Part shown: positions 1,318-42,932 of the stretch, piece after piece | Layout of the letters: the number at the start of each line of letters is the position of its first letter | How positions within the stretch are numbered: position 1 is the stretch's first letter | Source of the DNA: Candidatus Doudnabacteria bacterium | GTDB taxonomy: Bacteria; Patescibacteriota; Doudnabacteria; UBA920; O2-02-FULL-48-8 | DNA: 64,000 bases | Assembly: GCA_039931165.1 (NCBI GenBank) | Contig: JBDTSL010000003.1 | Location: 10,349-74,348 of the forward strand | Reading direction: 5' to 3' | Translations under genes and position numbers: made by a program | The notes under the pieces: model-generated | What the model was told of the DNA's origin: nothing | Database searches by the model: none | What the model saw: only the letters and a program-made list of their open reading frames with translations

Positions 1318-2097
1318 TCACCTTTTGATTTTTTTATCTAACCTTTTAGCTTCTTCCCAGGCCAGGTCGAAGCTATTTTTAAGCATGTCCGCAATTTCTT
1401 GGCTTTCGATAATGATCCCAAAATTATCTTTTGGCGAAACTATAGCAATTTTATCTCCAAATATTCCCATATCGGAAGAAAAATTATATTTGTCTTTTGG
1501 GATCAACACTTGTTCATAAGGCTTATTTGGTTTAACATATTTAACTAGTTCTAGCATTTCTTTTGTTGCAGGACTTATTGCGAACATTTTTATTCCTTTT
1601 TTAGCTCTCTCACTATCTTGGGTCTGAAAATCAGGAACATGTTTGAAAATCTCAGCAGGATTTGCAAAAACTCTGAGTTCTTTCGTTTTTGTTTCCAAAA
1701 GACTCCAATATACTTCTCTGGCGCCATCCTTGCCTTCAAATATTTTTACAATCGGTCTTCGTTTTGTGGCCTTATGTAAAGCCTTGAGCTCAGGTAGGAT
1801 TGATTCTACCTTGGCTTTTATATCTTCCTGTTTTTTAGCGGCTGTTTTGACTGTTTGAAGTAAAATCTCCGGGGAAGCCGCCACGTATCGGCGGACATTT
1901 TTGTCGTCAGAAATTCCTGCTAAACCTTTCTTTTTCAGGGCTTCCAGGACCACATAAGCTGAGCTTCGGTTAATGCCGGAGTGTTCAGCGACCTCAAAAA
2001 CAGTAGCCAATTCAAGCTCCAGAAGGCTTAGATAGATCTTAGCCTCTTTATCCGATAGGCCGGAACCAATGAGTTGTTTAAGCAGGGGAGTGTTCAT
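1318..2097 (-). CDS. TrmB-family transcriptional regulator (N-terminal wHTH plus C-terminal effector domain)
   Basis: 'LSDKEAKIYLSLLELELATVFEVAEHSGINRSSAYVVLEALKKKGL' is a TrmB-type HTH. 259 aa. Confidence 0.75.
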   Translation of the reverse strand: MNTPLLKQLIGSGLSDKEAKIYLSLLELELATVFEVAEHSGINRSSAYVVLEALKKKGLAGISDDKNVRRYVAASPEILLQTVKTAAKKQEDIKAKVESILPELKALHKATKRRPIVKIFEGKDGAREVYWSLLETKTKELRVFANPAEIFKHVPDFQTQDSERAKKGIKMFAISPATKEMLELVKYVKPNKPYEQVLIPKDKYNFSSDMGIFGDKIAIVSPKDNFGIIIESQEIADMLKNSFDLAWEEAKRLDKKIKR

Positions 2098-2190
2098 ATT
2101 TACTGTTAGAGTATAACAACAAGTTGACTTAAACGCAAGCCAGGGCTCAATATTATGCTGTCAGGCATTGACAACAATCATATTCGGACT
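2098..2190. promoter_or_regulatory. Repeated promoter/operator module, copy R1, between divergent trmB-like gene and membrane-protein gene
   Basis: Contains the palindrome TACTGTTAGAGTA (2101-2113, TACT-N5-AGTA, the site type reported for archaeal TrmB). Also the conserved block AACGCAAGCCAGGGCTCAATAT and the palindrome TGTCAGGCATTGACA (2159-2173), which includes TTGACA. Near-identical copies lie at 2800-2898 and 12795-12886. Confidence 0.6.
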
Positions 2191-2293: not shown

Positions 2294-2695
2294 ATGAAAA
2301 AATCTAAATTGGGTTTTGCGTCAAAACTTATTTTAATTTTTATTGCCGAATTGCTCATCGCCGGGTTTGTGGTTACTCCTTTAACAAAGTTGTTGCTTCC
2401 TAATATTACCGTCGCAGTTAAATCCTGGGTAGCCATTCTGCAGTTGGCTGTGGCCTTGAGCTTAAGTTTAGGTTTGGTTAAATACTTTGTGGAATTCGAC
2501 CCAAAGGAAGGATACAAAATCGGCAAAGTTTTAGTGGTGCTTAATATAGCTCTCGTTTTGGCACAGTTTTTTATTTTAAATCCGCTACCATTAAGATTCA
2601 CTGCCGCTATTTTAATTTTTGATATTGTAAGGTTAATTCTTAGTAGTGCAATTACTTACTATGCTTGCGTGTTTATACTGTCAGAATCTCGTTAA
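2294..2695 (+). CDS. Hypothetical integral membrane protein (4 predicted TM segments)
   Basis: ORF of 133 aa, hydrophobic throughout. No recognisable motif. Confidence 0.45.
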   Translation: MKKSKLGFASKLILIFIAELLIAGFVVTPLTKLLLPNITVAVKSWVAILQLAVALSLSLGLVKYFVEFDPKEGYKIGKVLVVLNIALVLAQFFILNPLPLRFTAAILIFDIVRLILSSAITYYACVFILSESR

Positions 2696-2799
2696 TTTTC
2701 CAGATACCAAAAAAAAATTAAGATTAAAGCGGCATAAAAAAAATGATTGAAAAAATCGTAGTCAGTTATTTAGCATAAGATAGGTTTGATCAAAGGACC

Positions 2800-2898
2800 A
2801 TTCATATTTACTGTTAGAGTATACCAACAAATAGATCGAAACGCAAGCCAGGGCTCAATATTACGCCGTCAAGGATTGACAACAATCGACCTAATGAT
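2800..2898. promoter_or_regulatory. Repeated promoter/operator module, copy R2
   Basis: Carries TACTGTTAGAGTA (2809-2821), the conserved AACGCAAGCCAGGGCTCAATAT block and the palindrome CGTCAAGGATTGACA. It also copies the first ~7 codons of the trmB-like gene on the minus strand (MNGPLIK... then stop), so it arose by duplication of the trmB 5' region. Confidence 0.6.
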
Positions 2899-2903
2899 AA
2901 AAT
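2876..2903 (+). promoter_or_regulatory. Sigma70-like promoter inside R2 driving the GC-rich cassette
   Basis: TTGACA, then 16 nt, then TAAAAT. Confidence 0.5.
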
Positions 2904-3118
2904 CAATTGAAGATATAGTCTCATTCAGATGGCTATGTTTTGTTTATATTTTGTTGATCATCGCAGGAGGATCTTTGGAAGCAATGATGTGGGTGATCTG
3001 AGGCTGGGTTAGGTAAGGACATGGACCCAATCCTGGTCAACTCACGGTCGAACGCGGACACACGCGCTGGTCAATCAGTTGCGTCAGTTGCGCTCACGTC
3101 GGTGTCGAGAGGACAGCA

Positions 3119-3610
3119 ATGCTAAGTCTCAAAGAAACGCTGGGCTATACGAACGACCAAGTACTCAACAAGTTTCGTACGCTGTACGAATTCTCACGGC
3201 CAGACGCCGAAGAGATCGCTCGAGAGACAAACCGATGGCTTTGGCTGAACGCTCGCCTTAAGGCAGACAGAAAAGAAGGACGCCAGAATATCCCGCGCGT
3301 TCTTGTAGTGCATGAAGGGATGGTGGTGCTGGACGAATACTGGCACACTTTCATTCTTCACACGCGCGATTACAGAGAGTTCTGCGATAGCCATCTGGGG
3401 TTTTTCATCCACCACTCCCCATCCTTTCCAGGGTTTCAGCCACCTTCTCAAGAGGAGGCAGAGGAGCAGCTGAATTACATCTGCGACAGAGTCGGCGACG
3501 AAACACTCATCAAGTGGTACGAAGAGTACCCCGTCAGATACTCGGCTGATGTACTGACGAAACTTCAGAGGCCGAAACAGTTCGGCCGGCCCTGTGAGGC
3601 GATTACATGA
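3119..3610 (+). CDS. DUF1399 / glycine-rich-domain-protein (GRDP)-like protein, paralogue 1
   Basis: 'RWLWLNARL...VVLDEYWHTFILHTRDYREFCDSHLGFFIHH' aligns with the paralogue at 12962-13441 ('RFLLLNATHPHIVPTREIDQFWHMHILDTYKYTQDCEDLFGHYLHH'). The W-H-x-H ... Y..DC pattern matches my recollection of Pfam DUF1399. Confidence 0.55.
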   Translation: MLSLKETLGYTNDQVLNKFRTLYEFSRPDAEEIARETNRWLWLNARLKADRKEGRQNIPRVLVVHEGMVVLDEYWHTFILHTRDYREFCDSHLGFFIHHSPSFPGFQPPSQEEAEEQLNYICDRVGDETLIKWYEEYPVRYSADVLTKLQRPKQFGRPCEAIT

Positions 3611-4281
3611 TGAAACAACCCGCAGCGTCACCAGAGCTCTGCGCGTCGCAAGTTCGAGAGCAAATTGATTTGGTGGGGTTCTCGATTGCGGAAGTCGGCG
3701 ATAGGGAAAACTATCTGACAATTTGCGGCATGTTAGGCTGCATTACCGGGACAAGAGATCTCAGTATACAGCCTGACAAGGTCGAGCGGTTTACTGGGTA
3801 TTCGTACAAGCCTGACGAAGTGCCGTTCCACACAGATAACCCGCTTGTCAATATCGTTGGGCTGTTCTGTGTGACGCCTGACGCGATTGGGGGTGAAAAC
3901 CTCCTCATTGATTCTCGGGACATCCTGAAAGAACTGACGGAGCAGGAGCGTGAGTGCCTGAAGCAGGTGCGTGTGCCCCTGCCCAAGAAAGAAGAGTGTC
4001 TCCCAGTTCTAACCGAGATCGATGGTCGGCCTCCGCATGTTTATTGGCTACCGGCGTTCACGTTAGCGATGACGGCGAAACTCGAGAAGGAGTACTCAGA
4101 AGCTGTTAATCGCTTCGACGAAGTGCTTCAAAATCATCGTGCTGCCAAGAGATGTCGTTCGATTCGGCTGAACACTGGTGAGGCGCTTTGGTTTGACAAT
4201 TTCGTCATGTTGCACGGGCGAGACCGACTCGAGGCATCCAGCAAACGGGCCCAAGTGCGGGTTTTCATCAAGTACGTTTGA
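3607..4281 (+). CDS. Fe(II)/2-oxoglutarate-dependent dioxygenase, TauD/TfdA (clavaminate-synthase-like) family
   Basis: 'PFHTDNP' is the HxD iron-binding motif. The C-terminal 'WFDNFVMLHGRDR' is the distal His plus Arg, as in the WDNR...H family motif. ATGA overlap with the upstream gene. Confidence 0.65.
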   Translation: MMKQPAASPELCASQVREQIDLVGFSIAEVGDRENYLTICGMLGCITGTRDLSIQPDKVERFTGYSYKPDEVPFHTDNPLVNIVGLFCVTPDAIGGENLLIDSRDILKELTEQERECLKQVRVPLPKKEECLPVLTEIDGRPPHVYWLPAFTLAMTAKLEKEYSEAVNRFDEVLQNHRAAKRCRSIRLNTGEALWFDNFVMLHGRDRLEASSKRAQVRVFIKYV

Positions 4282-4313
4282 CTGGAAATTTAAAATGGGA
4301 GGAGGTGATTTGC

Positions 4314-4397
4314 GTGACCCGTAAGGAGCGAATCAAGCGCATCGTGAAGAAGCTCAGCGCTAGCGACTGCTCTGCCTGCCAAGGCTGCACTAGCTAG
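4314..4397 (+). CDS. Unlisted 27-aa Cys-rich peptide (VTRKERIKRIVKKLSASDCSACQGCTS), candidate modified-peptide precursor
   Basis: Strong Shine-Dalgarno GGGAGGAGGTGA (4297-4308) lies 8 nt before a GTG start. Basic N-terminal half and a C-terminal core with three Cys and several Ser/Thr. A strong terminator follows immediately. Confidence 0.4.
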   Translation: MTRKERIKRIVKKLSASDCSACQGCTS

Positions 4398-4412
4398 CAT
4401 CGGCGTCGACGG

Positions 4413-4455
4413 TGTATCATGTATGTGAGTATACATGATACACTGTCATTTTTTT
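4413..4455 (+). terminator. Rho-independent terminator ending the GC-rich cassette
   Basis: GTGTATCATGTAT-gtgagt-ATACATGATACAC: perfect 13-bp stem followed by TGTCATTTTTTT. Confidence 0.8.
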
Positions 4456-4475
4456 GCATATTATTTTTTTAATAT

Positions 4476-5063
4476 ATGATCAGTAAGCTAAAAAAAGATT
4501 GGACGGAATATTTTGAGAATACAAAAGAGTACCCACCCTCAAAACTTCTTATTGAGGCTCTTTGCTATGTAAACAATAAACACAAGGCTATAGATATCGG
4601 TGGCGGGGCTCTGAAAGATACCCGTTATTTACTGTCACAAGGTTTTGATACTACAGTAATTGACAAAGAGGATCAAATGGCTACTTTTGCTCGAAAGTTA
4701 AAATCTGATAGATTGCATTATTTTATAACCACTTTTGCCAACTTTGATTTTCCAGAAAATGAGTATGATATTGCCTCGGCTATATATTCATTACCATTTA
4801 ATCTACCTGAAGATTTTGATTATGTTTTAATGAAAGTAAAAAATTCTTTGGTTAAAGGTGGTATTTTTTGTGGGCAATTCTTCGGAGAGCGCGATGATTG
4901 GCATATTAATCCGACAATGACTTTCCACTCAGGGGAAAAAGTTAAGACTTTACTCGCTGATATGAATATTCTTTTATTTGAGGAAAAAGAGTTTAAAGGT
5001 AAAACTGCGAATAATTCTCCTAAATATTGGCATGTGTTTAATGTCATAGCTAGAAAAAAATAG
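4476..5063 (+). CDS. Class I SAM-dependent methyltransferase (TehB/TPMT-like small-molecule methyltransferase)
   Basis: Motif I 'AIDIGGGALKDTRYLLSQGF' and an acidic motif II 'VIDKED'. 195 aa, AT-rich coding. Confidence 0.65.
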   Translation: MISKLKKDWTEYFENTKEYPPSKLLIEALCYVNNKHKAIDIGGGALKDTRYLLSQGFDTTVIDKEDQMATFARKLKSDRLHYFITTFANFDFPENEYDIASAIYSLPFNLPEDFDYVLMKVKNSLVKGGIFCGQFFGERDDWHINPTMTFHSGEKVKTLLADMNILLFEEKEFKGKTANNSPKYWHVFNVIARKK

Positions 5064-5170: not shown

Positions 5171-6721
5171 ATGAAAACTATCAATATTGACGGAAAAAGT
5201 TTGGACCTGGATTCAATCCTGTCGGTTTTAAACGATCCCGGTACAAAAGTAAATATCAGCGCCTCGACTCTCAAAAAGATCCAAAAGTCTGCTGATTTTT
5301 TAGGTAAAGAGATAATCAACTCAAAAGTTATTTACGGCATCAATACGGGATTTGGCCCCATGGCCTCTCATCTGATGGCCAGAGATCAGATAGTACAACT
5401 ACAGGAGAACCTGATCAGAAGCCATGCGGTGGGGGTAGGAGACCCTATGCCGGAAAAATTTGTTTTAGCAGCGATGATAATCCGGCTCAACACTTTGGCA
5501 GAAGGATATTCCGGAGCCTCGCAGGAATTGATCCAACAGCTCAAAATTTTCATCAATAAAAGAATAATCCCTGTGATTTTAGAACATGGGGGAGTGGGTG
5601 CCAGCGGCGATTTGGTCCAGCTGGCCCATATTGCTTTGGCTCTGATCGGTGAAGGCAAGGTTAATTATCAGGGAAAGACCCGGCCGACGTCCGATGTTCT
5701 GAAACAGTTGAAGATCAAGCCTTATCAGCTGAGACCGAAGGAAGGACTATCTCTGATTAACGGAACGTCTTTTATGTCCGGTATCGGGTCAGTGATATGC
5801 CATGACAGCGACATGCTTTTGAACTTAGCTATTAAAACCGGCGCGTGGTCTCTGGAACTGGTGAATGGTTATACCGACGGCTTTTCGGAAAAACTACATT
5901 CGTTGCGCCCGCATAAAGGCCAGGTGGCTGTCGCCCGGAAATTGAGGGAACTTTTGGCTAGCTCAAAGTTGCTGAAATCCCGCGAGTTGATAAACAAGCA
6001 GGTTAATCTTGGTTCTGATGTGAAAGAGATCCCGGAGTTTGTCCAGGAAGTTTATTCCATCCGCTGTATCCCGCAAATTTTGGGCCCAATTTACGATACG
6101 CTCCAGAAAACCAAACAGGTCATCGAAACCGAGATTAATTCCGTCACGGACAACCCGATCGTCTATGTGGATAAAAAGACATTCCTGCATGGAGGCAATT
6201 TCCACGGTGATTATATTTCATCCTCATTGGATCAGCTGAAGATGACATTGGTCAGGTTGACCATGCTGTCGGAGAGACGAGTCAACTTTTTTTTAAATCA
6301 CAATGTTAATAGATTTTTGCCCCCATTTATCAATTTAAACAAAATTGGATTAAACTTGGGCTTGCAAGCTCTGCAGTTTCCTGCAACTTCGACTACCGCG
6401 AAAAGCCAAACATTAGCATACCCCCAATATGTCCACTCCATCCCCACGAACGCGGACAACCAGGACATTGTCAGCATGGGCACAGACTCCGCACTTATCA
6501 CTACCCAAGTGGTGGATAATGCTTTTGTGGTTTTGGCTATAGAGTTGGTAACCTTGGCCCAGGCAGTGGATTATCTCAAATATCAAAACAAACTTTCTAA
6601 ATCCTCAAATGAACTTTATAAAGCAGTACGCCGGATCTTGCCCAAGGTTGTGGAAGACCGGATGATCGGATATGACCTAACAATGCTGGTATCAGAAGTA
6701 AAGAAAGGCGTTATAAAATAA
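5171..6721 (+). CDS. MIO-dependent aromatic amino acid ammonia-lyase / aminomutase (HAL/PAL/TAL family)
   Basis: 'HGGVGASGDLVQLAHIALALIGEG' carries the Ala-Ser-Gly triad that forms the MIO cofactor. 'YGINTGFGPMASHL' is also present. 516 aa. Confidence 0.85.
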   Translation: MKTINIDGKSLDLDSILSVLNDPGTKVNISASTLKKIQKSADFLGKEIINSKVIYGINTGFGPMASHLMARDQIVQLQENLIRSHAVGVGDPMPEKFVLAAMIIRLNTLAEGYSGASQELIQQLKIFINKRIIPVILEHGGVGASGDLVQLAHIALALIGEGKVNYQGKTRPTSDVLKQLKIKPYQLRPKEGLSLINGTSFMSGIGSVICHDSDMLLNLAIKTGAWSLELVNGYTDGFSEKLHSLRPHKGQVAVARKLRELLASSKLLKSRELINKQVNLGSDVKEIPEFVQEVYSIRCIPQILGPIYDTLQKTKQVIETEINSVTDNPIVYVDKKTFLHGGNFHGDYISSSLDQLKMTLVRLTMLSERRVNFFLNHNVNRFLPPFINLNKIGLNLGLQALQFPATSTTAKSQTLAYPQYVHSIPTNADNQDIVSMGTDSALITTQVVDNAFVVLAIELVTLAQAVDYLKYQNKLSKSSNELYKAVRRILPKVVEDRMIGYDLTMLVSEVKKGVIK

Positions 6722-6722
6722 A

Positions 6723-7826
6723 ATGTTGGAGCCACCGAGAATATTTAAGGACAAAAAAGATGCTCCGGCGAATGCCAAGGTCATAGACGCATTTTCGTCT
6801 TCACTGACAGAGCTTTTTTTTATTGCTCATCCTCATTTGAAGAAAGGAATGCCGGAGGTGGATGCTGAACTGCAAAAATATCTGGAAGCAAATACGATCC
6901 CGGATATTTGGATTTATTACCCCGAAACAAATACCCTAGTGCGTACCTTGCCGGAAGAGGAATATTTCAGGCTTCGGACGGCAAGAAATAGAGATTTAAT
7001 TTCAGAGCAGGAACAAAACAATTTTCGCAGCATTACCGTGGGCATCGCCGGATTATCGGTTGGGTCGTCGGTGTTAAATATCCTTGTTCTGAGCGGGGGC
7101 CCGAAAGTTCTGAAGATAGCCGATTTTGATACTTTAGAAGTCTCCAATTTAAACCGCATCAGAGCGGGCCTGGCCGATGTTGGCACAAACAAAACCGAGA
7201 TAGCGGCGAGGGAAGTTTGGGAGCTGGACCCTTTTGCACAGCTTAAGCTGTACCACGACGGACTGAACAAGGAAAATATTGAGGAATTTATCTTGGGAGA
7301 ACCTCGACTCGGGGTCTTCGTAGATGCCATGGACAGCATTGATCTTAAAATTTTAGCCAGATTGATATGCAAAAAAAATAAAATTCCCGTGCTTTCTGCT
7401 ACGGATAACGGCGACAGCGTAATTCTGGACATAGAAAGATTTGATCTGGAGCCCGGCCGGGAGATTTTTCACGGGCTGGTTAAAGATATAGAACAATTAG
7501 ACCTGGACCATCTTGATTATAAGTCTTGGCTTAATTTGGCTGCCCAGATAGTTGGCCCGGAATATTTAACCGAGTCAATGCAGGATTCAGTTCTTAAAAT
7601 CGGCAAATCATTGGCCAGCGTCCCGCAGTTAGGCGCCTCTGCGGCAATCGGGGGATCTGCTTGCAGTTTTGCTATCAGAAGGATTGCTAACAAGCAAGCT
7701 CTAAATTCAGGCCGCTCTATCATCAGTCTGGAAGAAAAATTAATCCCAGGGTTCGGCGACCCGGAGAGTGTTTTGTCGAGAAGCACAAAAACAGAACAAT
7801 TTGTCCGATCTTTCGGGCAAAAATAA
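6723..7826 (+). CDS. E1-like / ThiF-MoeB family adenylyltransferase with ~75-aa N-terminal extension
   Basis: 'RTARNRDLI...ITVGIAGLSVGS' is the Rossmann motif. 'KIADFDTLEVSNLNRI' is the canonical DxDxVExSNLNRQ motif. Confidence 0.8.
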   Translation: MLEPPRIFKDKKDAPANAKVIDAFSSSLTELFFIAHPHLKKGMPEVDAELQKYLEANTIPDIWIYYPETNTLVRTLPEEEYFRLRTARNRDLISEQEQNNFRSITVGIAGLSVGSSVLNILVLSGGPKVLKIADFDTLEVSNLNRIRAGLADVGTNKTEIAAREVWELDPFAQLKLYHDGLNKENIEEFILGEPRLGVFVDAMDSIDLKILARLICKKNKIPVLSATDNGDSVILDIERFDLEPGREIFHGLVKDIEQLDLDHLDYKSWLNLAAQIVGPEYLTESMQDSVLKIGKSLASVPQLGASAAIGGSACSFAIRRIANKQALNSGRSIISLEEKLIPGFGDPESVLSRSTKTEQFVRSFGQK

Positions 7827-7827
7827 T

Positions 7828-9267
7828 ATGACGCAAGAAATAAAAAATATACTGAATATTTTTCACACTGCCGCCAGGGAAGTGCCTGCTTACAGAAGTT
7901 TTTTGAAGGCCAATAAGATAGATCCGAAAAAAATAAAAATGTTCGAGGATTTTGAACGCCTGCCGATAATGGATAAACATAATTTTATTCATAAATATCC
8001 GTTTGAGCAGTCGTTCAGCAGAAAAAAAATTCCCGCCATGATCTCCGCTTCATCGGGCTCATCCGGCAAGCCCACATTTTGGCCGCGGGATGATTTACAG
8101 GAGCAGCACGGAGGCGAGATCCACCTGCGGATCTTCAGGGATATTTTCGGCATCAAGCCAGACCAGCCGACCCTGGTAATTGACTGTTTTGCTACCGGCA
8201 TCTGGGTAGCGGGTAATTTTACCCTGTCATCCTGCCGTTACGTCTCGCGCCAGGGGTATAATTTGACCTCCGTAACGCCGGGCATTGAAATAGAGGATAT
8301 CCTCAGCTGTATTAAAATTTTAGGGCCCCATTTTAAAAACGTGATCATAGCCGGATATCCGCCGTTTATGATGGACGTCTTCGTGGAAGCGATCAAAAGG
8401 GGAATTAAAATTCCAAAAAATCTCAAGGTTATGACTTCCGGAGATAAGTTTTCCGAAGAATGGAGAGATGCCGTGTTAAAATTGCTTCATCTGGACGGCT
8501 TGAGTTCTGTCATAAGCGTCTACGGCTGCGCCGACGCGTCATTGCTGGGATTTGAAACTGCCGCGAGCATTTTTTTACGAAGAAAATCCCTTGAGGTTCC
8601 TCAACTTTACCATCGCCTATTCGGTTCCGAAAAATCACTGCCGACTATTTTGCAATACGATCCCAAATACGTATTTTTTGAAGAAAATGGCCAGGAATTG
8701 ATTTTTACCGCCAACACCAGCATCCCTTTGATCCGCTACAATATTCATGATGTGGGAAACGTACTTACTCATCAGGAAGCTGCTGCGATCTTATCCGAAT
8801 ATAAGCTTTTGGAAGAAGCAAATCGTCACGGATTTAAGGATTGGCAGCTGCCGTTTGTGGTAAAAAAGGGACGAACCGATGTCGCGGTAACTTTTTACGC
8901 ATTAAATATTTATCCCGAGGACATCCTAGCCGGAATTGAGGATCGCAGAGTAAAAAAGTTTTTAACTGGAGACTTTTTTTCATACAACCAAGATATCAAG
9001 AACCACAAACAGCAAAAATTGTTCATTAAGCTGCAGCTTTCGCCAAAGACAAAACTTTCCGCAAAAATAAAAGAACTGATAGGCAACAGCATTGTTGAGA
9101 ATTTGAAAAAGACCAGCACCGAGTACCGCAAATTATTTGCAGCTATCGGCAATAGAGCATTGCCAGAAATTTTATTTACCAAAAGCAAGGATTTTAAGAT
9201 CGATCATCACCGAGGCCTGATTGATATTCAAGGGAAAAAACCGAAAGTCACATTGGGGGAAAAATAA
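7828..9267 (+). CDS. PaaK-like adenylate-forming enzyme (phenylacetate-CoA ligase / coenzyme F390 synthetase family)
   Basis: 'ISASSGSSGKPTFWP' is the ANL P-loop, placed near residue 80 as in PaaK. The ORF-track start at 7768 overlaps the upstream gene. The internal ATG at 7828 ('MTQEIKN') abuts the upstream stop. Confidence 0.65.
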   Translation: MTQEIKNILNIFHTAAREVPAYRSFLKANKIDPKKIKMFEDFERLPIMDKHNFIHKYPFEQSFSRKKIPAMISASSGSSGKPTFWPRDDLQEQHGGEIHLRIFRDIFGIKPDQPTLVIDCFATGIWVAGNFTLSSCRYVSRQGYNLTSVTPGIEIEDILSCIKILGPHFKNVIIAGYPPFMMDVFVEAIKRGIKIPKNLKVMTSGDKFSEEWRDAVLKLLHLDGLSSVISVYGCADASLLGFETAASIFLRRKSLEVPQLYHRLFGSEKSLPTILQYDPKYVFFEENGQELIFTANTSIPLIRYNIHDVGNVLTHQEAAAILSEYKLLEEANRHGFKDWQLPFVVKKGRTDVAVTFYALNIYPEDILAGIEDRRVKKFLTGDFFSYNQDIKNHKQQKLFIKLQLSPKTKLSAKIKELIGNSIVENLKKTSTEYRKLFAAIGNRALPEILFTKSKDFKIDHHRGLIDIQGKKPKVTLGEK

Positions 9268-9277
9268 TTAGAACTTT

Positions 9278-10333
9278 ATGGAAACAAACATTAAAAAAAT
9301 TTTGGAAATAGCGGTTCTTGCTCCTTCTGGGGACAATTCCCAACCTTGGAAATTTTCTATCAAAGACGATACATTGTATGTGATTCTTGTTCGAAATGCT
9401 GATGATTCAGCTTATAATTTTATGGAGCGAGGATCTTTGATCGGCCATGGGGCAGTATTAGAAAATATTAATATTATTTCGCGGCATCTAGGCCTCAATG
9501 CCAATATACAACTTTTCCCGGAAGGCAAAAATTCAGACCTGGTTGCTAAAATTTCATTTCTGCCTACCGCAAACCAAGACACTGGTCTGTTTGAAGCTAT
9601 AGAAAAGCGTTGCACTAATAGGAAGCAGTATAAAGCACTGAATATTTCAGCAAATCATGAAAAGGAAATTCTTTCAATACCATTAGAAAAACCACTACTT
9701 AACTTTTCTTTATTGAAAGATAGGGCGAAAATTACAGATTTGGCCAACACCATAAATCTCAACGAAAGAATGTTTCTGGAAAATTATTATGTACATAAAG
9801 GATTATTTGGTTTTATCAGATGGACAAAGGAAGAGGAGCTGAAATATAAAACAGGTATGTATATAAAAACCTTGGAGCTCCAACCTCCTCAGGAATTTGC
9901 GATGAAGATATTTAGAAGGTGGCCGATAATTAATTTTTTTAACAAATTTAACATTGCGGCTATGGTAGCGAAAGACAGCGCTAAACTTTACACCACTTCG
10001 GCTGCGTTTGGTTTAATTACGGCTCCAGATTTATCCGAAGAAAGTTTAATCGCTACGGGCAGAATGATGCAGAGGATTTGGCTCACCGCTACAAAATTAG
10101 GTGTGAGTATGCAGCCTACTGCAGGCTTGCTTTATTTGGCTCAAAGAGTAAACGAGGAGGGAACCAAAATATTTTCGGCCAAACACGTTGAAATGCTAAA
10201 GACTGCAGAACAAAAAATAAAAGGAATATTTAAATTGTCAAACGAAGTTCCAACTTTGCTTTTTCGTTTGGGATATGCCGATCCTCCTTCCGCCACATCA
10301 ATAAAACATCCTTATTTATTAAAAAATATATGA
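9278..10333 (+). CDS. Nitroreductase-family flavoprotein, tandem-domain (~350 aa) type
   Basis: The N-terminal 'VLAPSGDNSQPWKF' matches the nitroreductase signature. The length is roughly twice a canonical NfsB fold. Confidence 0.7.
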   Translation: METNIKKILEIAVLAPSGDNSQPWKFSIKDDTLYVILVRNADDSAYNFMERGSLIGHGAVLENINIISRHLGLNANIQLFPEGKNSDLVAKISFLPTANQDTGLFEAIEKRCTNRKQYKALNISANHEKEILSIPLEKPLLNFSLLKDRAKITDLANTINLNERMFLENYYVHKGLFGFIRWTKEEELKYKTGMYIKTLELQPPQEFAMKIFRRWPIINFFNKFNIAAMVAKDSAKLYTTSAAFGLITAPDLSEESLIATGRMMQRIWLTATKLGVSMQPTAGLLYLAQRVNEEGTKIFSAKHVEMLKTAEQKIKGIFKLSNEVPTLLFRLGYADPPSATSIKHPYLLKNI

Positions 10334-11058
10334 AAAACAAATTGTTTTTTCCAAAAAGGATTCCCGAACCTACCGCTATGGGAAAAATTGAATCAGAGGT
10401 CTTCGAAAAAATGTCCAAAGAAAATTATCAAAGATGGATCCTGCCTCTTGTGGATGATCTGGAACGATTTATGGATAATAAAAACCGTACTATCCTTGAT
10501 ATTGGCTCAGGACCGGGGCTTTTGGTCAAAGAGATAGCAATACGCTTCAAGCAGTCGAAAGTAATTGGGCTGGATAATTCTGCAGTTGCAGTAAAATTAG
10601 CTAGAAAGAATTGCATAAAACAAAGAAATGTCAGCTTTGTTGTCGGGGACGCTACCAAATTACAATTCAAGAGCCAATCTTTCGATCTTGTCGTATGTAA
10701 AGATACCCTGCACCATTTTCCGAAAGTTAAGACTTGTATCAAAGAGATGCTTCGGGTCCTGAAAGATGGAGGAACTCTATATATCCAAGACTTAAGAAGA
10801 GATTTACCTCATTATTTGCTGAAGCAGGCGATGCCGCCGGACACGGTTATGAAAAAGCTCCAATATTATTCCGCACGCGCTGCTTATACTAAAGATGAGT
10901 TGAAAAAAATACTGAAGGAATTAGGTGTGCGCAAACTGAATATTCAAACAAAAAAAGTCACACCTCAAATGGCTAAAAAGTACAGGAAATTGAACGTGGA
11001 CCTGACCAGACTTAAGCAAAGTTTTATTACCCGGTACGTGGCAACAATAAAAAAATAG
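10330..11058 (+). CDS. Class I SAM-dependent methyltransferase
   Basis: Motif I 'ILDIGSGPGLL', motif II 'VIGLDNS' and 'LRVLKDGGTLYI' are present. ATGA overlap with the nitroreductase gene. Confidence 0.8.
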   Translation: MKNKLFFPKRIPEPTAMGKIESEVFEKMSKENYQRWILPLVDDLERFMDNKNRTILDIGSGPGLLVKEIAIRFKQSKVIGLDNSAVAVKLARKNCIKQRNVSFVVGDATKLQFKSQSFDLVVCKDTLHHFPKVKTCIKEMLRVLKDGGTLYIQDLRRDLPHYLLKQAMPPDTVMKKLQYYSARAAYTKDELKKILKELGVRKLNIQTKKVTPQMAKKYRKLNVDLTRLKQSFITRYVATIKK

Positions 11059-12738
11059 ATGAATCCAAGCATTTTTCAGAACATACGGAACATTGACCTC
11101 TTGTCGGTCGGAATTGCCACTGCTTCTATTGGGATAATGGGTTTTATCATTTATTTTAATGATAAAAAGAACAGCATCAATCAGACTTTTCTGGCCCTGT
11201 CCGTGATGGGCATTTTTTGGAGTGCTTTTAATTATTTAAGTTATCAATTTTACGACCCGGTTGTGGTAATTTGGCTGATCCGAATTGCCGTCTTTTTTGC
11301 AGTGTGGTTTTCTTTTTCTATTTTTAGGTTATTTTATATTTTTCCAAATAAAAGCCCAGAATTTGTAAAGGCATATTATTACTTATTTATTCCGATAACA
11401 GTTGTTTCGTCACTGCTAAACTTAACCCCATTGGTGTTTACCCGAGTGACTGCATTTACTGAGGGGCGGGTGTCGGAAGTGGCCAACGGACCTGCTATTG
11501 CTTTGTTTGGAATCGTTGTATTCGGGTTGGTCGGATGTGGCATATATTTGTTAGTTAAAAAAATCAGGCGGACTAAAGGAGTTGAAAGAAAGCAACTCGA
11601 CTTAATATTTTTCGGAATAACCATTACTTGTTTATTGCTGATAATTTTCAATTTTATTTTACCGGCCTTTTTAAACAATGCCGCTTATATTTCTTTTGGC
11701 GCGGTATTTTTGTTTCCTTTCATAGCTCTTACCGCTTACTCTATAATTAAACTGCATTTGTTTGATGTAAAAGTGTTTGCGACCGAAGTATTAACTTTTG
11801 TGCTCTCAATAGTTAATTTAATTGAGATTGTGACCGCAAAAGATACCCTGACGTTTGTTTTTCGTCTATCTATGTTCGCATTAGTATTAGGTTTTGGAAT
11901 TTTGCTGATAAGGAGCGTGCAAAAGGAAGTAGAGCTTAGGCGTCAACTGCAAATCTTAGACAAAGAACTTGAGGCCGCGAATGCGCAGCTGAAGATTTTG
12001 GACCAGGCCAGGGCCGAGTTTATCACTATCGCGTCCCATCAGCTTCGCACGCCGCCGGCCACTATCAAGTGGTATTTGGCCTCCATTCTGGACGGGGATT
12101 ATGGCAAGATGGACGCGGCAGTGCATGAACAGCTTCGTAAAACCGCTTCAACCAATGGTTCAATGATCTCGCTGATCGACGATCTGCTGAATGTTTCTAG
12201 GATTGAGCGGGGCAAGATGGAATTTATTTTCCAGCCCACGGATATGGCGGAGATCACCCAGATCACGGTTGACCAGCTCCTGCCGCAGGCGGAAATGAGA
12301 AAACTGCAGTTGATCTACGAAAAGCCGAAAGTACCCCTGCCGATAATCAACGCCGATAAAGAAAAACTGCGCCAGGTTATCAATAATTTGATTGATAATG
12401 CTATTAAATATACCCCGAAAGGTTCGATCACGGTCCAGCTCAGCCAGACCAAGGATGACATCATGGTGAAAGTCACCGATACGGGCAAAGGAGTAGATAA
12501 GGAACATCTCAAAAACGTATTTATAAAATTCGAACGCGGTAAAATTCCCGCTAAAAACTCCACCGGTCTGGGACTGGGGCTGTATGTGGCCAAAGTCATA
12601 GTCGAACAGCATAAAGGCAAGATCTGGGTCGAGTCGCCGGGCGTGGGTAAAGGCTCGAGCTTTATTTTCACCGTGCCGATCAAAGGCGAGGTCAACACCA
12701 CGGAATTCGACCTGACCAAGACCCAAACACCGGCTTGA
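11059..12738 (+). CDS. Sensor histidine kinase with polytopic (~7 TM) N-terminal sensor domain
   Basis: H-box 'ITIASHQLRTPPATIKWY', N-box 'NNLIDNAIKYT' and G-boxes 'DTGKGV' and 'GLGLYVAKVIVEQHKG'. Starts 1 nt after the methyltransferase stop. Confidence 0.85.
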   Translation: MNPSIFQNIRNIDLLSVGIATASIGIMGFIIYFNDKKNSINQTFLALSVMGIFWSAFNYLSYQFYDPVVVIWLIRIAVFFAVWFSFSIFRLFYIFPNKSPEFVKAYYYLFIPITVVSSLLNLTPLVFTRVTAFTEGRVSEVANGPAIALFGIVVFGLVGCGIYLLVKKIRRTKGVERKQLDLIFFGITITCLLLIIFNFILPAFLNNAAYISFGAVFLFPFIALTAYSIIKLHLFDVKVFATEVLTFVLSIVNLIEIVTAKDTLTFVFRLSMFALVLGFGILLIRSVQKEVELRRQLQILDKELEAANAQLKILDQARAEFITIASHQLRTPPATIKWYLASILDGDYGKMDAAVHEQLRKTASTNGSMISLIDDLLNVSRIERGKMEFIFQPTDMAEITQITVDQLLPQAEMRKLQLIYEKPKVPLPIINADKEKLRQVINNLIDNAIKYTPKGSITVQLSQTKDDIMVKVTDTGKGVDKEHLKNVFIKFERGKIPAKNSTGLGLGLYVAKVIVEQHKGKIWVESPGVGKGSSFIFTVPIKGEVNTTEFDLTKTQTPA

Positions 12739-12794
12739 AACGTATCTAGAGATAACAAAAAAACCTCGACATTAGTCGGGATTTTTTTAAATAT

Positions 12795-12886
12795 CCATAC
12801 TGTCAGTATATTCCAACTACTTGCATAAAACGCAAGCCAGGGCTCAATATAACGCTGTCAAGTATTGACAACAATCGACCCAATGC
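12795..12886. promoter_or_regulatory. Repeated promoter/operator module, copy R3
   Basis: TACTGTCAGTA (12798-12808, TACT-N3-AGTA), the conserved AACGCAAGCCAGGGCTCAATAT block and the palindrome TGTCAAGTATTGACA (12856-12870). Confidence 0.6.
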
Positions 12887-12961
12887 TTACACTTCATAAT
12901 GATTTGGTCGGCAATTCCGCAGGCCGCAATCACTCGTAAGCAACAATCGAAAAGAGGAATC

Positions 12962-13441
12962 ATGGAAATTCCGTCGACATTGGAAAACAAGTTGGCGAAT
13001 CTCGATCTCGAGCCGATCAAGGTCAAGCTCATGGATGCCGAAGAAGGGCCGGGTTGGTCGCTCAAGATGTGCGACTCGGTGGAGGTGCTTTACAAGCGCT
13101 TCCTGCTGCTCAACGCAACACATCCGCACATCGTTCCGACGCGAGAGATTGACCAGTTCTGGCACATGCACATTCTCGACACTTACAAGTACACCCAGGA
13201 CTGCGAAGACCTGTTCGGCCACTACTTACATCACTTCCCGTACTTTGGTATGCGGGGTGCCAGTGATGCCAGCGATTTGAAGCTGGCATTTGCCAATACG
13301 CTGGCTCTGTACGCTGCCAAGTACGGCGAACCGCTTGAAACGGCAGCGGCGATGTGCAACTGCTGTGACGATGGCGGCGGAGTGACACAGGGTGATCTCA
13401 AGGCCATTCGACCGACAATCGACCGATCACTCGCGATGTGA
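12962..13441 (+). CDS. DUF1399 / GRDP-like protein, paralogue 2 (GC-rich)
   Basis: 'YKRFLLLNATHPHIVPTREIDQFWHMHILDTYKYTQDC'. The RBS AAGAGGA precedes the ATG at 12962, so the longer 12899 start is unlikely. Confidence 0.55.
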   Translation: MEIPSTLENKLANLDLEPIKVKLMDAEEGPGWSLKMCDSVEVLYKRFLLLNATHPHIVPTREIDQFWHMHILDTYKYTQDCEDLFGHYLHHFPYFGMRGASDASDLKLAFANTLALYAAKYGEPLETAAAMCNCCDDGGGVTQGDLKAIRPTIDRSLAM

Positions 13442-13452
13442 AGGCTCATACA

Positions 13453-13487
13453 GGGGGATAAGTTGCTTTCCCCCTCTTTTTTTAAAT
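13453..13487 (+). terminator. Rho-independent terminator
   Basis: GGGGGA-taagttgctt-TCCCCC followed by TCTTTTTTTT. Confidence 0.6.
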
Positions 13488-13496
13488 CTATTAGAT

Positions 13497-14168
13497 ATGA
13501 TCACATTCTATACTAAATTAGCGAATTTATATGATAAAACCTATCTGAAAAAAGATTATCAGAAAGAAGTTTTATATTTGAAAAAATTTATTAAAGGTTC
13601 AGTTTTGGATGTTGGTTGTGGAACAGGTCGACATTTACAATATTTGAAAGATCACATACGAATTGGATTAGATAAAAGTTTGCAATTAATTAAACTTGCG
13701 AAACAAAATAATCCAGGGATTAAGTTTTTGCAAGGGGACATTGTTAATTTTAAAATTAATCAGAAATTTGATACGATTATCAGTTTGTTTACAGTGATTG
13801 CTTACCTAAATTCTAAGCAACTTGAGGAAGCTATTAATAATTTAGTCAGTCATTTGAACTCTAAAGGAATTTTAATTTTAGAACCTTTCGCTGAACCAAA
13901 AACCTTGTCATTGAAACCTTGGTTTAATTCCTATAATTCACCAACTTTAAAATTTACTCGATATGTGACTCTCAAAAAAATTAGAAATATAGCTAAACTA
14001 AATATTCAATGGTGGGTTAATGGAAATACTATTAAAGAAGTTCAACATTTATCATTATTTAAGCATAAACATATCATCAAATTATTAAATAAATATTGTG
14101 TTAAAGTCGAGTATTTGCCACCAACGCATTTATTTAGATACGGACTATTTGTGGCTAGAATTTCTTGA
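13497..14168 (+). CDS. Class I SAM-dependent methyltransferase (AT-rich)
   Basis: Motif I 'VLDVGCGTGRH' and motif II 'RIGLDKS'. The internal start 'MITFYTKL' was chosen because the longer ORF overlaps the upstream gene in a different frame. Confidence 0.7.
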   Translation: MITFYTKLANLYDKTYLKKDYQKEVLYLKKFIKGSVLDVGCGTGRHLQYLKDHIRIGLDKSLQLIKLAKQNNPGIKFLQGDIVNFKINQKFDTIISLFTVIAYLNSKQLEEAINNLVSHLNSKGILILEPFAEPKTLSLKPWFNSYNSPTLKFTRYVTLKKIRNIAKLNIQWWVNGNTIKEVQHLSLFKHKHIIKLLNKYCVKVEYLPPTHLFRYGLFVARIS

Positions 14169-14239
14169 ATATAAAAATAGTTAAGGGAACTATATACCTA
14201 AATCGGCTGGATCGCTTCACAAAAATATCTTTTCTTGAA

Positions 14240-14345
14240 TCGAACAGCGTAAAGGCAAGATCTGGGTCGAGTCGAAAGGGGAGGTAAAGGCGAGGTCAAC
14301 ACCACGGAATTCGACCTGACCAAGACCCAAACACCGGCTTGAAAT
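14240..14345 (+). pseudogene. Truncated duplicate of the 3' end of the histidine-kinase gene (direct repeat of 12602-12740 with a 35-bp internal deletion)
   Basis: 'CGAACAGCGTAAAGGCAAGATCTGGGTCGAGTCG' and 'AAAGGCGAGGTCAACACCACGGAATTCGACCTGACCAAGACCCAAACACCGGCTTGAAA' recur at 12602-12740. Confidence 0.8.
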
Positions 14346-14411
14346 ATATCGCCCGATTTGTTAGAATTGGTTAGCGTTCGGGCGTAGCTCAGCGGTAGAG
14401 CAGCTGACTGT

Positions 14412-14981
14412 GAACAAGTTCTTAAAGGCGGCATAAAGGTCTTATTTTATGCCAAAAGAGAAGAGAACATATTCCGACCGTTCTCAATACATTATCCAGG
14501 CGGTTACCAAGAGACGTAAAAAGCTCAGGGAAATGGCTAGGGTGTATAAAGGCGGTAAATGTATGATCTGTGGTTACGATCGCTGTCTAGGAGCGCTTGA
14601 TTTTCACCACATTGATCCTTCCAAGAAAAAGTTTGGAATATCCATGAACGGATTAACCAAATCTTGGGATAAGATCAAAGGCGAACTGGATAAGTGCATC
14701 TTAATTTGCGCGAATTGCCACAGAGAAATCCATGCAGGAATTACGCAGCTTCCTGGGGAAACCCAGGTTGAAAAACGAGGTGAACTCGGGGAAGCCCTGC
14801 ACCAGTAATCGGTACAGGGTAATCCCGAGCCAAGCTCCGACTTTTCAGTCGGAGAAGGTGTAGAGACTATCCCGCAAGGGAGTACTCCCAGCCCTTTCTT
14901 CGAAAGTGCTGGGCGGAAGCGCCTCGGACCCCTAATAGGGTTATGATATAGTCCATACTAAAGGCGACTTTAGATTAAATG
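14412..14981 (+). ncRNA. Group I self-splicing intron (570 nt) carrying an HNH endonuclease ORF
   Basis: Conserved core elements: R-like 'GAGACTA' (14863-14869) and S-like 'GATATAGTCC' (14944-14953), which form P7 (GACTA/TAGTC). Terminal G (omegaG) at 14981. Confidence 0.65.
14449..14808 (+). CDS. HNH homing endonuclease encoded within the group I intron
   Basis: 'CMICGYDRCLGALDFHHIDP...CILICANCHREIH' gives CxxC ... HH ... CxxCH, the HNH zinc-finger and catalytic motif. Confidence 0.8.
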   Translation: MPKEKRTYSDRSQYIIQAVTKRRKKLREMARVYKGGKCMICGYDRCLGALDFHHIDPSKKKFGISMNGLTKSWDKIKGELDKCILICANCHREIHAGITQLPGETQVEKRGELGEALHQ

Positions 14982-15025
14982 TAATCAGCGGGTCGCTGGT
15001 TCGAATCCAGCCGCCCGAGCCAAAT

Positions 15026-15056
15026 AAAAAAACCTGACTTCTGTCGGGTTTTTTTA
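15026..15056. terminator. Bidirectional terminator after the tRNA
   Basis: AAAAAAACCTGAC-ttct-GTCGGGTTTTTTT (one G-U pair in the stem). Confidence 0.7.
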
Positions 15057-15182
15057 TTTGTTTGACAGGCTGGATTCGAAGGGCAGAAGTGAGGCAAGAC
15101 CCCAGTCGCAGCCGAACGTCGACGGAAGCGAGGGCTCGCAGCTTCCGTCGCTGCCCCGGACATGAGCGCATCAGCGCGAATC

Positions 15183-15240
15183 CGAATCCAGCCGCCCGAG
15201 CCAAAAGAAAGAAACTGACTTCTGTCAGTTTCTTTCTTTT
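15183..15240 (+). repeat. Second copy of the tRNA 3' end (CGAATCCAGCCGCCCGAGCCAAA) plus a second terminator (AAAGAAAGAAACTGAC-ttct-GTCAGTTTCTTTCTTT): att-like scar
   Basis: A 21-nt exact repeat of 15002-15022. Both terminators share the core CTGACTTCTGTC. Inverted T-arm fragments GGCTGGATTCGAAGGG (15068-15082) and GGCGGATTCGAAGGG (15262-15273) follow each unit. Confidence 0.6.
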
Positions 15241-42548: not shown

Positions 42549-42932
42549 TGGTGGAGCTGGGGAGAATTGCACTCCCGTCCAAGAGATTTCAATAAATATT
42601 TCTACAAGTTTAGACCGCTTGAATTGTTACCCAAAACCATAGAAGCGGACTAAAGCGGTTTTGGCTAAGCCCTTAGTGTCCTTTGTCAGTCGGGCGTCAG
42701 ACAAAGTGAGTCCGAATAATATAACACCCGTATTCCACGCACAGACTTTGCGGAGCGGATGGGTTATCGCTTATTAAGCAACAGCCATAGCCGGAGAGAA
42801 CGCAAAAGCATTCTTTACGGTTTTTACCAATGAATTGGCATTTATGATTTGCCTTATCTTTTTAACCGAGAGATTAGGCTAATCGGACTTGCAATATTTA
42901 TCAAAGAACTCTTGTCGAATCTGAGCAGCCCC
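42549..42932 (-). ncRNA. ssrA: tmRNA (ssrA), 384 nt, immediately downstream of smpB
   Basis: 5' end GGGGCUGCUCAGAUUCGACAAG. 3' end GGACGGGAGUGCAAUUCUCCCCAGCUCCACCA. The acceptor stem has the G3-U70 Ala identity pair. An internal tag-like ORF reads ...AFAFSPAMAVA followed by TAA TAA. Confidence 0.85.

Follow-up and report, generated by a model that had tools for sequence, protein, structure and literature searches.

Metalloenzymes that bind the leader of a peptide and oxidize its cysteines are known from the MNIO family (DUF692), with methanobactin MbnBC, TglHI and the bufferins as examples, and are often encoded in two- or three-gene modules. The fold of MNIOs, which use iron, is a TIM barrel, and their partner is a DUF2063/RRE protein; the BURP-domain cyclases of plants depend on copper. 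Precursor and enzyme can be fused or split: in the borosins (OphMA-type and split bacterial systems) the core is attached to the C-terminus of the enzyme or encoded by a separate precursor gene (bioRxiv 10.1101/2021.12.24.474128; PMC8429565), and the burpitides, the products of BURP-domain plant peptide cyclases, come with fused autocatalytic repeated-core as well as split architectures (PMC10107690). SmaO/SmaX combines an Fe(II)/2-oxoglutarate (2OG) hydroxylase with a small helical His/Asp metalloenzyme, and both act on the precursor of a peptide made on the ribosome and modified after translation (RiPP) (PMC12186529). Here we compare with these systems a locus in a 64,000-nucleotide stretch of a Candidatus Doudnabacteria contig (JBDTSL010000003.1, positions 10,349 to 74,348), called the window throughout. 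The locus is a cassette that encodes a protein of family PF27765 (protein A), a TauD-type oxygenase (protein B) and an unannotated 27-residue peptide. It is best read, from the sequences compared here, as the elaboration by a clade of the Candidate Phyla Radiation (CPR) of a widespread and undescribed two-component system consisting of A and a small peptide.

The family name of A, UCP032817, is mentioned in no paper that we found, and the literature on DUF1399 and the GRDPs concerns plants only, with no bacterial study among it. Plant GRDPs carry a C-terminal low-complexity tail (PMC4299439) and are known from stress and development phenotypes, with no biochemical function assigned (PMC4299439, PMC8585784).

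A conserved gene for a 27-residue peptide

All cassette genes lie on the plus strand. Protein A (163 aa; 3119..3610) and protein B (224 aa; 3607..4281) overlap by the four nucleotides ATGA at 3607-3610, in which the TGA stop of A runs into the ATG of B, an arrangement that points to translational coupling. The peptide gene (4314..4397; GTG start, TAG stop), which encodes VTRKERIKRIVKKLSASDCSACQGCTS, is preceded by the Shine-Dalgarno sequence GGGAGGAGGTGA at 4297..4308, 7-8 nt before the start codon. An intrinsic terminator (4408..4455) comes directly after its stop, as the preliminary description of this DNA had proposed; its hairpin (4408-4447, dG -28 kcal/mol) has a stem of 18 pairs rather than the 13 given there, a 4-nt loop and a subsequent T-run.

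Homologous loci were collected by exact-protein look-up, by a genome scan and by an alignment-based metagenome scan. The genome scan, which used a single query sequence, yielded one close locus; many more came from the metagenome scan, whose query was an alignment. The preliminary description had tied its case for the small open reading frame (ORF) to conservation in homologous cassettes. That test came out in its favor because the ORF is conserved with coding-type selection: it is present in 14/14 independent, evaluable loci that have both A and B. Eleven of the 14 carry it downstream of B as a 27-mer, and three (L010, L019, L088) carry it upstream of A with a length of 29-38 aa and an end in ACQGCES, NCQGCTA or ACQGCTGCSK. 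The near-perfect Shine-Dalgarno that had been described is equally general, as AAGGAGG stands at the same position before the ORF in all homologous loci.

The eleven 27-mers share the invariant pattern M.R..RI..I...L....C.AC.GC.., in which a leader-like helix (about residues 2-14) is followed by a Cys core (residues 19-27). Among them, third codon positions are variable in 26/26 cases and first and second positions in 14/26 each. The ratio pN/pS is 0.30 in frame as compared with about 1.6 in the two other frames. Computed in the same way, it is 0.26 for A, 0.35 for B and 0.32 for the methyltransferase gene that follows the cassette. Purifying selection at the amino-acid level spans the entire peptide, the N-terminal helix included. 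The small ORF is thus a genuine conserved coding gene. After its stop a strong hairpin (dG -26 to -34 kcal/mol) was found in 8/8 loci folded, with sequences unrelated between loci; folding covered these eight, and in L086, which has no methyltransferase, a hairpin was recognized by inspection of the sequence.

The gene is called by the source annotation in none of the loci, and an exact look-up of nine variants returned none in a collection of 15 billion proteins, so that the word 'unlisted' used for it earlier applies well beyond this contig. Neither the CPR peptides nor their distant counterparts match Pfam or NCBIfam, the best score being to the FlmA RiPP family at E = 0.11. The peptide family is therefore uncatalogued and uncalled in every locus examined, yet constrained like the neighboring enzymes.

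Protein A and its pairing with the peptide

Protein A is 100% identical to P0001, from a Candidatus Doudnabacteria contig (CPR/Patescibacteria), and belongs by precomputed family assignment to PF27765 'UCP032817-like'. The local Pfam copy, against which A gave no match even at E <= 10, does not contain the PF27765 model; the assignments of A (P0001) and of its paralogue in the window (P0184) are both precomputed. An AlphaFold2 (AF2) model of A (pLDDT 90) is all-helical. Neither an S-adenosylmethionine (SAM) motif nor a solved relative in structure or sequence was found. The earlier label 'DUF1399-like' is valid at the superfamily level only, because some relatives of the paralogue match both PF27765 and PF07173/DUF1399; A itself gives no PF07173 match at E <= 10, and the paralogue, with 13.5-14.1 bits (E about 0.1), stays below the PF07173 gathering threshold of 22.7 bits. 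Two further assignments were rejected: neither sequence nor fold supports an HD-domain oxygenase of the PhnZ/TmpB/SmaX type (H...HD...D motif), and nothing connects A with CoiH, a new sulfoxide-forming family whose member exceeds 330 aa.

An exhaustive profile search returned 5,728 representatives (50% identity clusters) at E <= 1e-3, and 902 when the limit was set to E <= 1e-10; standalone proteins of 150-200 aa predominate. This large orphan family, which has no structure, now gains a testable hypothesis, namely that its members act on, or together with, an adjacent or fused Cys peptide. The hypothesis comes from the distant homologs of A (27-42% identity), which are encoded without a TauD oxygenase and without a methyltransferase. 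Many of them have as their direct same-strand neighbor a small, uncalled ORF with the architecture of the window peptide, that is, an N-terminal amphipathic helix of the type K/R-E-E-L-I-x-R-L-L-K and a C-terminal Cys motif; examples are MKKKTSETKEQLIARLLKKASLSASACCGRCHH, MTKKALIEKLVKKNLQTHALCIKCGCKAE and MSREEIICRIVRQLIKTPNQNKACCGHYQ. With a strict filter a helix-plus-Cys ORF lies within 350 nt of A on the same strand in 15/50 non-redundant A loci. Applied to the opposite strand the filter gave 0 cases, and about 407 kb of background gave 2. A hidden Markov model of the peptide recovers members outside its seed, namely L019 and, in L030, further tandem copies.

In a paired alignment of 24 diverse A+peptide pairs, the type of peptide follows the subclade of A. 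Invariant in A are W40, L43, D72, W75, H76 and F78 as well as L80, T82, Y85, F88, H98 and H99; the peptides have a single invariant Cys, which corresponds to Cys22 of the window version. Apart from this Cys, the pairs conserve the N-terminal helix motif of the peptide, whereas its linker and tail vary.

Two loci illustrate the range of this pairing. In Legionella taurinensis (L085, 3924-4417) a 25-aa ORF, MSKQEKICRIVRFITNKNWQGTCCR, overlaps A through TGATG, its TGA running into the ATG of A, and the pair lies between divergent genes of the AhpC/CMD peroxiredoxin type and dotU/icmF. This overlapping two-gene pair offers an entry point in a culturable organism. In the metagenomic locus L029/L030 (L030 2269-3807 and 2781-4450) three tandem peptide genes accompany two A paralogs; the peptides read MDKKTLVDALLTKNLDSVTDLKCR[SH]RCRCW twice and ...GLCCWHFCFVAN, a multi-precursor arrangement. 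As a side observation, the ORF that precedes a distant homolog of A in L022 (3715-3897) differs in appearance; it reads ...EEVLLEKVSGGEWVDTCMSTDNNQCVDTCGYESTYVKDRWVF and has a double-glycine-type leader end, which suggests that some family members may use a bacteriocin-like processing site.

The neighbors that recur beside A are TauD (10 loci), the methyltransferase (8 loci), an ABC transporter (3) and a TrmB-type regulator (2), with hardly anything else. Because so little else recurs, peptide and A would form the core of the system, and TauD and the methyltransferase would be clade-specific additions. The earlier emphasis on a peptide next to an oxygenase fits the CPR loci, where it adjoins B; judged by the TauD-free pairs of many lineages, including the one in Legionella, the obligate partner of the peptide is A (PF27765) rather than the oxygenase.

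The oxygenase and the methyltransferase

Protein B had been described as a TauD-like dioxygenase with the motifs HxD...H...R, and this identification held. It matches Pfam TauD (PF02668) at E = 4.7e-14 and 53.4 bits against a cut-off of 27. Its residues H75-x-D77, H203 and R214 align with the Fe and 2OG ligands of human BBOX1 (FHTD and LHGR motifs), and none of the four varies among 10 loci or among 22 homologs. The 2OG-binding Arg lies about 11 residues past the distal His, as expected for the iron triad of TauD. Foldseek related the AF2 model of B (pLDDT 88) to TtnM, AsnO, TmpA, CarC, CAS, BBOX and TauD with probability 1.00 and a TM score of about 0.6-0.7; for the first six it is about 0.65-0.70, at 14-18% identity. 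Sequence and model agree that B is a genuine, if short, Fe(II)/2OG oxygenase of the TauD/clavaminate-synthase fold, a double-stranded beta-helix. It falls below the curated NCBIfam equivalog cut-offs for TmpA (35 vs 400 bits, its best NCBIfam match), TMLD (30.5 vs 268) and BBOX (29.7 vs 415), and is about 150 residues shorter than these three. Its translational coupling to A, which had already been proposed from the ATGA overlap, is reinforced by a natural A-TauD fusion (P0180).

The preliminary description had drawn the cassette as three genes at 3119-4460. All three are present, and the conserved unit extends past that end because a homolog of the class-I SAM methyltransferase encoded at 4476..5063 (plus strand, GC 0.33) follows in 10/14 A+B loci. 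This usual fourth gene is an accessory member, and dispensable because L086 has peptide and hairpin without it. The enzyme passes the cut-offs of the generic class-I domains Methyltransf_25/11 in Pfam. A more specific assignment as a TPMT/TehB thiol methyltransferase was rejected, the similarity being sub-threshold only: against TehB it reaches 18.8 of the required 20.4 bits in Pfam and 26 of 218 bits in NCBIfam, and it does not specifically resemble the TPMT domain found in P0162, a natural A-TPMT fusion.

The methyltransferase genes also differ in composition from the rest of the cassette. Across genomes of differing GC content they lie 9-19 GC points below A and B in 8/8 loci (the window, L001, L005, L007, L008, L012, L014 and L016), and they have no Shine-Dalgarno sequence. 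The unit of the paralogue has the same contrast, with a GC content of 0.55 for the PF27765 gene and 0.27 for the methyltransferase gene that follows.

Fused forms and the paralogue of A

The second PF27765 gene of the window (12962..13441, plus strand) is of a fused type, with an enzyme-like domain and a Cys/Gly tail. Its residues 131-159 (nt 13352-13438) read MCNCCDDGGGVTQGDLKAIRPTIDRSLAM, with an end of the form MCNCCDDGGG...IRPTI, so that the Cys element is built in and a separate peptide gene is lacking. The earlier statement that this paralogue shares the promoter module of the cassette and lacks the peptide is thus accurate for the module and needs amendment for the peptide: only the separate gene is absent, and the Cys motifs are fused to the C-terminus.

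The subfamily of the paralogue shows this more widely. Its C-termini carry Cys clusters or one to four tandem short Cys-centered motifs, among them AAFCSVA, PAYCGAIK, AAYCYAAKP and AAMCGAA, after which comes a conserved RP[ST]L end, and 51/86 members have at least 3 Cys within the last 45 residues. The tandem tails show the multi-core pattern known from fused RiPP precursors. Beyond this subfamily, A is fused to a C-terminal peptide-like tail in P0157, P0172 and P0144, and to a TPMT thiol methyltransferase in the P0162 protein named above (E = 1e-59). A GT4-type glycosyltransferase N-terminal to the PF27765 domain in P0126 and P0171 adds a further link to accessory enzymes.

The surroundings of the paralogue are of interest in their own right. 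A histidine kinase gene (11059-12738) has its 3' end repeated about 1.6 kb downstream (12603-12746 and 14240-14350), with a 34-nt internal deletion in the duplicate. The two copies flank a block at 12747-14239 that contains the third copy of the promoter module, the paralogue, its terminator and, after the latter, a second class-I methyltransferase gene (13497..14168, plus strand, GC 0.27) unrelated to the first. From this arrangement the block looks like an insertion. An HNH-endonuclease-like ORF (14449-14808) lies after the second copy.

Proposed mechanism and alternatives

On balance we lean toward a peptide-modification, RiPP-like system in which A would be the Cys-directed component. Its anatomy is RiPP-like because a leader-like helix joins a short core, one or several precursors occur, the partner is an obligate His/Asp protein, tailoring is optional, and split and fused forms coexist. 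The precursor is a small ribosomal ORF encoded alongside the genes of the pathway, with a conserved leader region and a core; a leader cleavage site was not identified in the peptide. From the sequence features, a sigma-70-type promoter in a module that occurs three times in the window would drive A, B and the peptide, with the transcript ending at the strong terminator, and the peptide, with its own near-perfect Shine-Dalgarno, would be made in excess. Protein A may bind the amphipathic helix T-R-x-x-R-I-x-x-I-x-x-x-L of the peptide as a leader and, through the cluster Asp72/His76/His98/His99, probably a metal site, act on Cys22 in the core C-x-A-C-x-G-C. In the CPR clade B, physically coupled to A, would oxidize or hydroxylate the core or the product of A, which the downstream SAM methyltransferase would then methylate. 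The pathway would yield either the modified peptide itself or a small molecule released from the C-terminal end.

Several observations weigh against this interpretation. Genes for a protease, an exporter or other tailoring steps are missing from most A+peptide loci, whereas secreted RiPPs usually have them. The nearest solved relatives of B (BBOX, TmpA, FrbJ, AsnO, CAS) all use small molecules, and the methyltransferase of the cassette is only generically class I. Finally, a Cys tail fused to A fits a permanent subunit or a metal-binding tail equally well.

The last point leads to the main rival, a non-covalent partnership, to which we give perhaps one chance in a few. The unmodified peptide would here be a thiol- or metal-binding or redox partner in a stable complex with A, working as a metallochaperone, sensor or mini-redoxin and possibly serving the iron site of B; the His/Asp cluster of A and the Cys of the peptide would jointly coordinate a metal ion (Fe, Zn, Cu or Ni) or would transfer reducing equivalents. 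Core motifs such as CQGC (CxxC), CCGRCHH, CIKCGC and CGKGCGKGCKSCGK are patterns of ligands or redox sites, the fusions of Cys tails to A suggest permanent association, and the A+peptide loci without protease or exporter suit such a complex, as do the AhpC/CMD peroxiredoxin genes that adjoin the pair in Legionella and a gene of the AhpC family near L007. Only one Cys is invariant across the family, however, and many tails repeat single-Cys motifs of the form A-[FYWM]-C-[SGY]-[VA]-A that resemble enzyme recognition sites. Several divergent peptide genes in one locus (L030) and partners such as oxygenases, methyltransferases and glycosyltransferases are likewise typical of biosynthesis. The invariant single Cys, the repeat tails and the enzyme accessories thus appear to favor biosynthesis without proving it. 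Both a modified and a small metal-binding peptide had been anticipated in the preliminary description; the layout of the peptide and its enzyme company fit that expectation, and the choice between a RiPP and a metal or redox partner is one of inference only.

A less probable alternative makes the peptide a scaffold or carrier on whose C-terminus A, B and the methyltransferase build a small sulfur molecule that is then released. The logic resembles that of pearlin/3-thiaglutamate or of the pyrroloquinoline quinone (PQQ)/mycofactocin type, and would explain both a TauD enzyme with small-molecule character and the lack of exporters. In its favor, the conserved core comprises very few residues at the very end of the peptide (CQGC[TE][SA], CCG, CCR, CCK), B clusters with small-molecule hydroxylases, an A-TPMT fusion exists, and protease and exporter genes do not recur in the loci. 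It is weakened by the absence of an associated ligase, PEARL-type or peptidase gene, and by the fused tails, which end in RP[ST]L past the Cys motifs and whose cores are thus not C-terminal. The idea is a sub-case of the best explanation and is inseparable from it in silico.

Detoxification of a thiol-reactive metalloid (Se, Te, As), captured by the Cys peptide or tail and methylated by a TehB/TPMT-like enzyme, seems very unlikely. The TPMT and TehB families do include Se/Te methyltransferases, P0162 joins A to a genuine TPMT domain, several peptides have vicinal Cys, and the cassette methyltransferase has the weak similarity to TehB described above. That similarity is far below the cut-offs, though, most A+peptide loci have no methyltransferase, and neither TauD nor the conserved leader-like helix would have a role.

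An attenuation leader, in which translation of an otherwise functionless peptide controls read-through into the methyltransferase gene, was rejected as the least probable option because the position of the peptide differs between loci: ten loci do have the ORF directly before a strong terminator and a methyltransferase gene without its own Shine-Dalgarno, and three Cys codons lie within nine codons of the stop, but L086 has peptide and hairpin without a methyltransferase, in L010, L019 and L088 the peptide precedes A without this arrangement, distant members, including that of Legionella, are translationally coupled to A, selection acts on amino acids over the whole peptide, and the hairpins differ between loci with no conserved antiterminator pairing seen by eye (no computational search was made).

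Returning to peptide modification by A, a broader proposal can be made tentatively, and we hold it with less confidence than the local one: PF27765 and the GRDP-like proteins might form a new superfamily of metal-dependent, Cys-modifying enzymes with split forms (enzyme and a precursor of about 25-40 aa) and fused, multi-core, self-modifying forms, ranging from CPR and Legionella to the plant GRDPs, and the CPR 27-mer might be the precursor of a new sulfur-modified RiPP class or of a peptide-derived small molecule or cofactor that bacteria with minimal genomes produce. If true, thousands of unannotated precursor genes would lie beside PF27765/GRDP-like proteins; if confirmed, the enzyme fold would be new to RiPP biosynthesis, and so, probably, would the sulfur chemistry.

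Regulation, spread and genomic setting

The 'R2 promoter' that had been placed upstream of the cassette is present, as one of three copies of a 104-nt module in the window (2076, 2784 and 12773). Copy B (2784..2903, plus strand) contains the promoter TTGACA-16-TAAAAT with a TG-extended -10 box (2876..2903) and the palindrome GTCAA-N3-TTGAC (GTCAAGGATTGAC, 2868-2880), which overlaps the -35 box. A GC-rich 5' leader of about 215 nt (2904..3118, plus strand) separates this promoter from A; it has no Rfam match that would indicate a riboswitch or conserved leader, and the regions upstream of A differ between loci. Copy A (2076..2179, plus strand; repeat family D1), with an operator-like motif at 2160-2175, stands 5' of the gene for a predicted 133-aa membrane protein (2294..2695, plus strand, from the ORF list), and copy C (12773..12876, plus strand), with its motif at 12857-12872, precedes the paralogue. 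The operator-like motif GTCANNNATTGACRAC occurs exactly 3 times in the window, with 0.07 expected, and among 89 fetched loci only in L012/L013.

A gene for a TrmB-family transcriptional regulator (1318..2097, minus strand; Pfam TrmB, E = 9.7e-16) is divergent from copy A, and in L012 a homologous TrmB-type regulator adjoins A, also divergently. From this arrangement the protein is a candidate regulator of the three module-driven units, and the palindrome over the -35 box is probably the operator of this adjacent regulator. The membrane protein is a possible member of the same regulon; it has no match in Pfam, NCBIfam or PADLOC, and its gene is no conserved neighbor of the cassette elsewhere.

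At 61-69% identity of A, the cassette is found in unrelated neighborhoods in genomes labeled as Doudnabacteria, Saccharibacteria, Andersenbacteria and unclassified Patescibacteria, and a Moraniibacteriota genome has A and B without the methyltransferase at 54-55% identity of A. These occurrences are compatible with lateral spread of the cassette between CPR lineages. Horizontal acquisition had been proposed earlier from GC content. The region 3119-4397 does have a GC content of 0.525 as compared with a window mean of 0.452 (standard deviation 0.036), at the 98th percentile, but this is weak evidence for transfer because the window is compositionally patchy, with equally GC-rich stretches elsewhere; the unrelated neighborhoods make the better argument. 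If the reading is true, CPR/Patescibacteria, usually seen as biosynthetically poor, keep and exchange a peptide-modification cassette. An association with phages or defense was rejected as unsupported: PADLOC gave no match for A, B or the paralogue and only a generic match of the methyltransferase to mad2, and a viral-contig scan gave one partial match.

Downstream of the cassette a run of genes on one strand (5171-11058) may be a separate biosynthetic cluster. It comprises an aromatic amino-acid lyase (5171-6721), a ThiF-like protein (6723-7826), a PaaK-like ligase (7768-9267), a nitroreductase-like protein (9278-10333) and a methyltransferase (10330-11058), of which the ThiF-like and nitroreductase-like proteins jointly match a split protein of the Rv1355c family. 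The lyase, ThiF-like, PaaK-like and nitroreductase-like genes were considered as parts of the cassette and rejected, since they are no conserved neighbors of it in other loci.

Elsewhere in the window, two 58-nt direct repeats lie 181 nt apart (15002-15059 and 15183-15240; families D9 and D16), each ending with a terminator-like hairpin and a T-run. A tmRNA gene is found at 42549-42932 on the minus strand (Rfam RF00023, 125 bits). A motif of about 32 nt with the core AGATTGCTTCGTCGCCGCC occurs in six copies, at 41132, 45663, 45970, 48615, 55125 and 62746, some of them followed by AAAGCGGCTCCTCGCAAA (repeat families D2, D3 and D10).

Comparison with known systems

The described systems set out at the beginning each share part of this arrangement. 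The TauD-type hydroxylase beside a small helical His/Asp protein recalls SmaO/SmaX and also PhnY*/PhnZ and TmpA/TmpB (PMC12186529). Unlike SmaX, PhnZ and TmpB, A has no HD domain by any test run. The MNIO systems differ in the enzyme, A being all-helical; in Pfam and NCBIfam scans of the window proteins no MNIO, DUF2063 or RRE domain was found.

In architecture the borosins are close, as PF27765 also shows both forms, A with a separate peptide and A with fused Cys motifs that are often tandem. Borosin enzymes, in contrast, are SAM-dependent alpha-N-methyltransferases of known fold, whereas A is a helical protein from a family of 130-200 aa without a SAM motif, and the target here appears to be Cys rather than backbone amides. 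Similarly, the burpitides parallel PF27765/PF07173 in having fused and split forms, to which the latter add plant members with a low-complexity tail. There is no relationship to BURP in sequence or fold, the cores here are centered on Cys and those of BURP on Tyr/Trp, and A would be metal-dependent only by inference. The plant GRDP1/2 proteins (DUF1399, PF07173) share with this family the motif D-x-x-W-H-x-x-I-L ... H-H-x-P, followed by a low-complexity tail.

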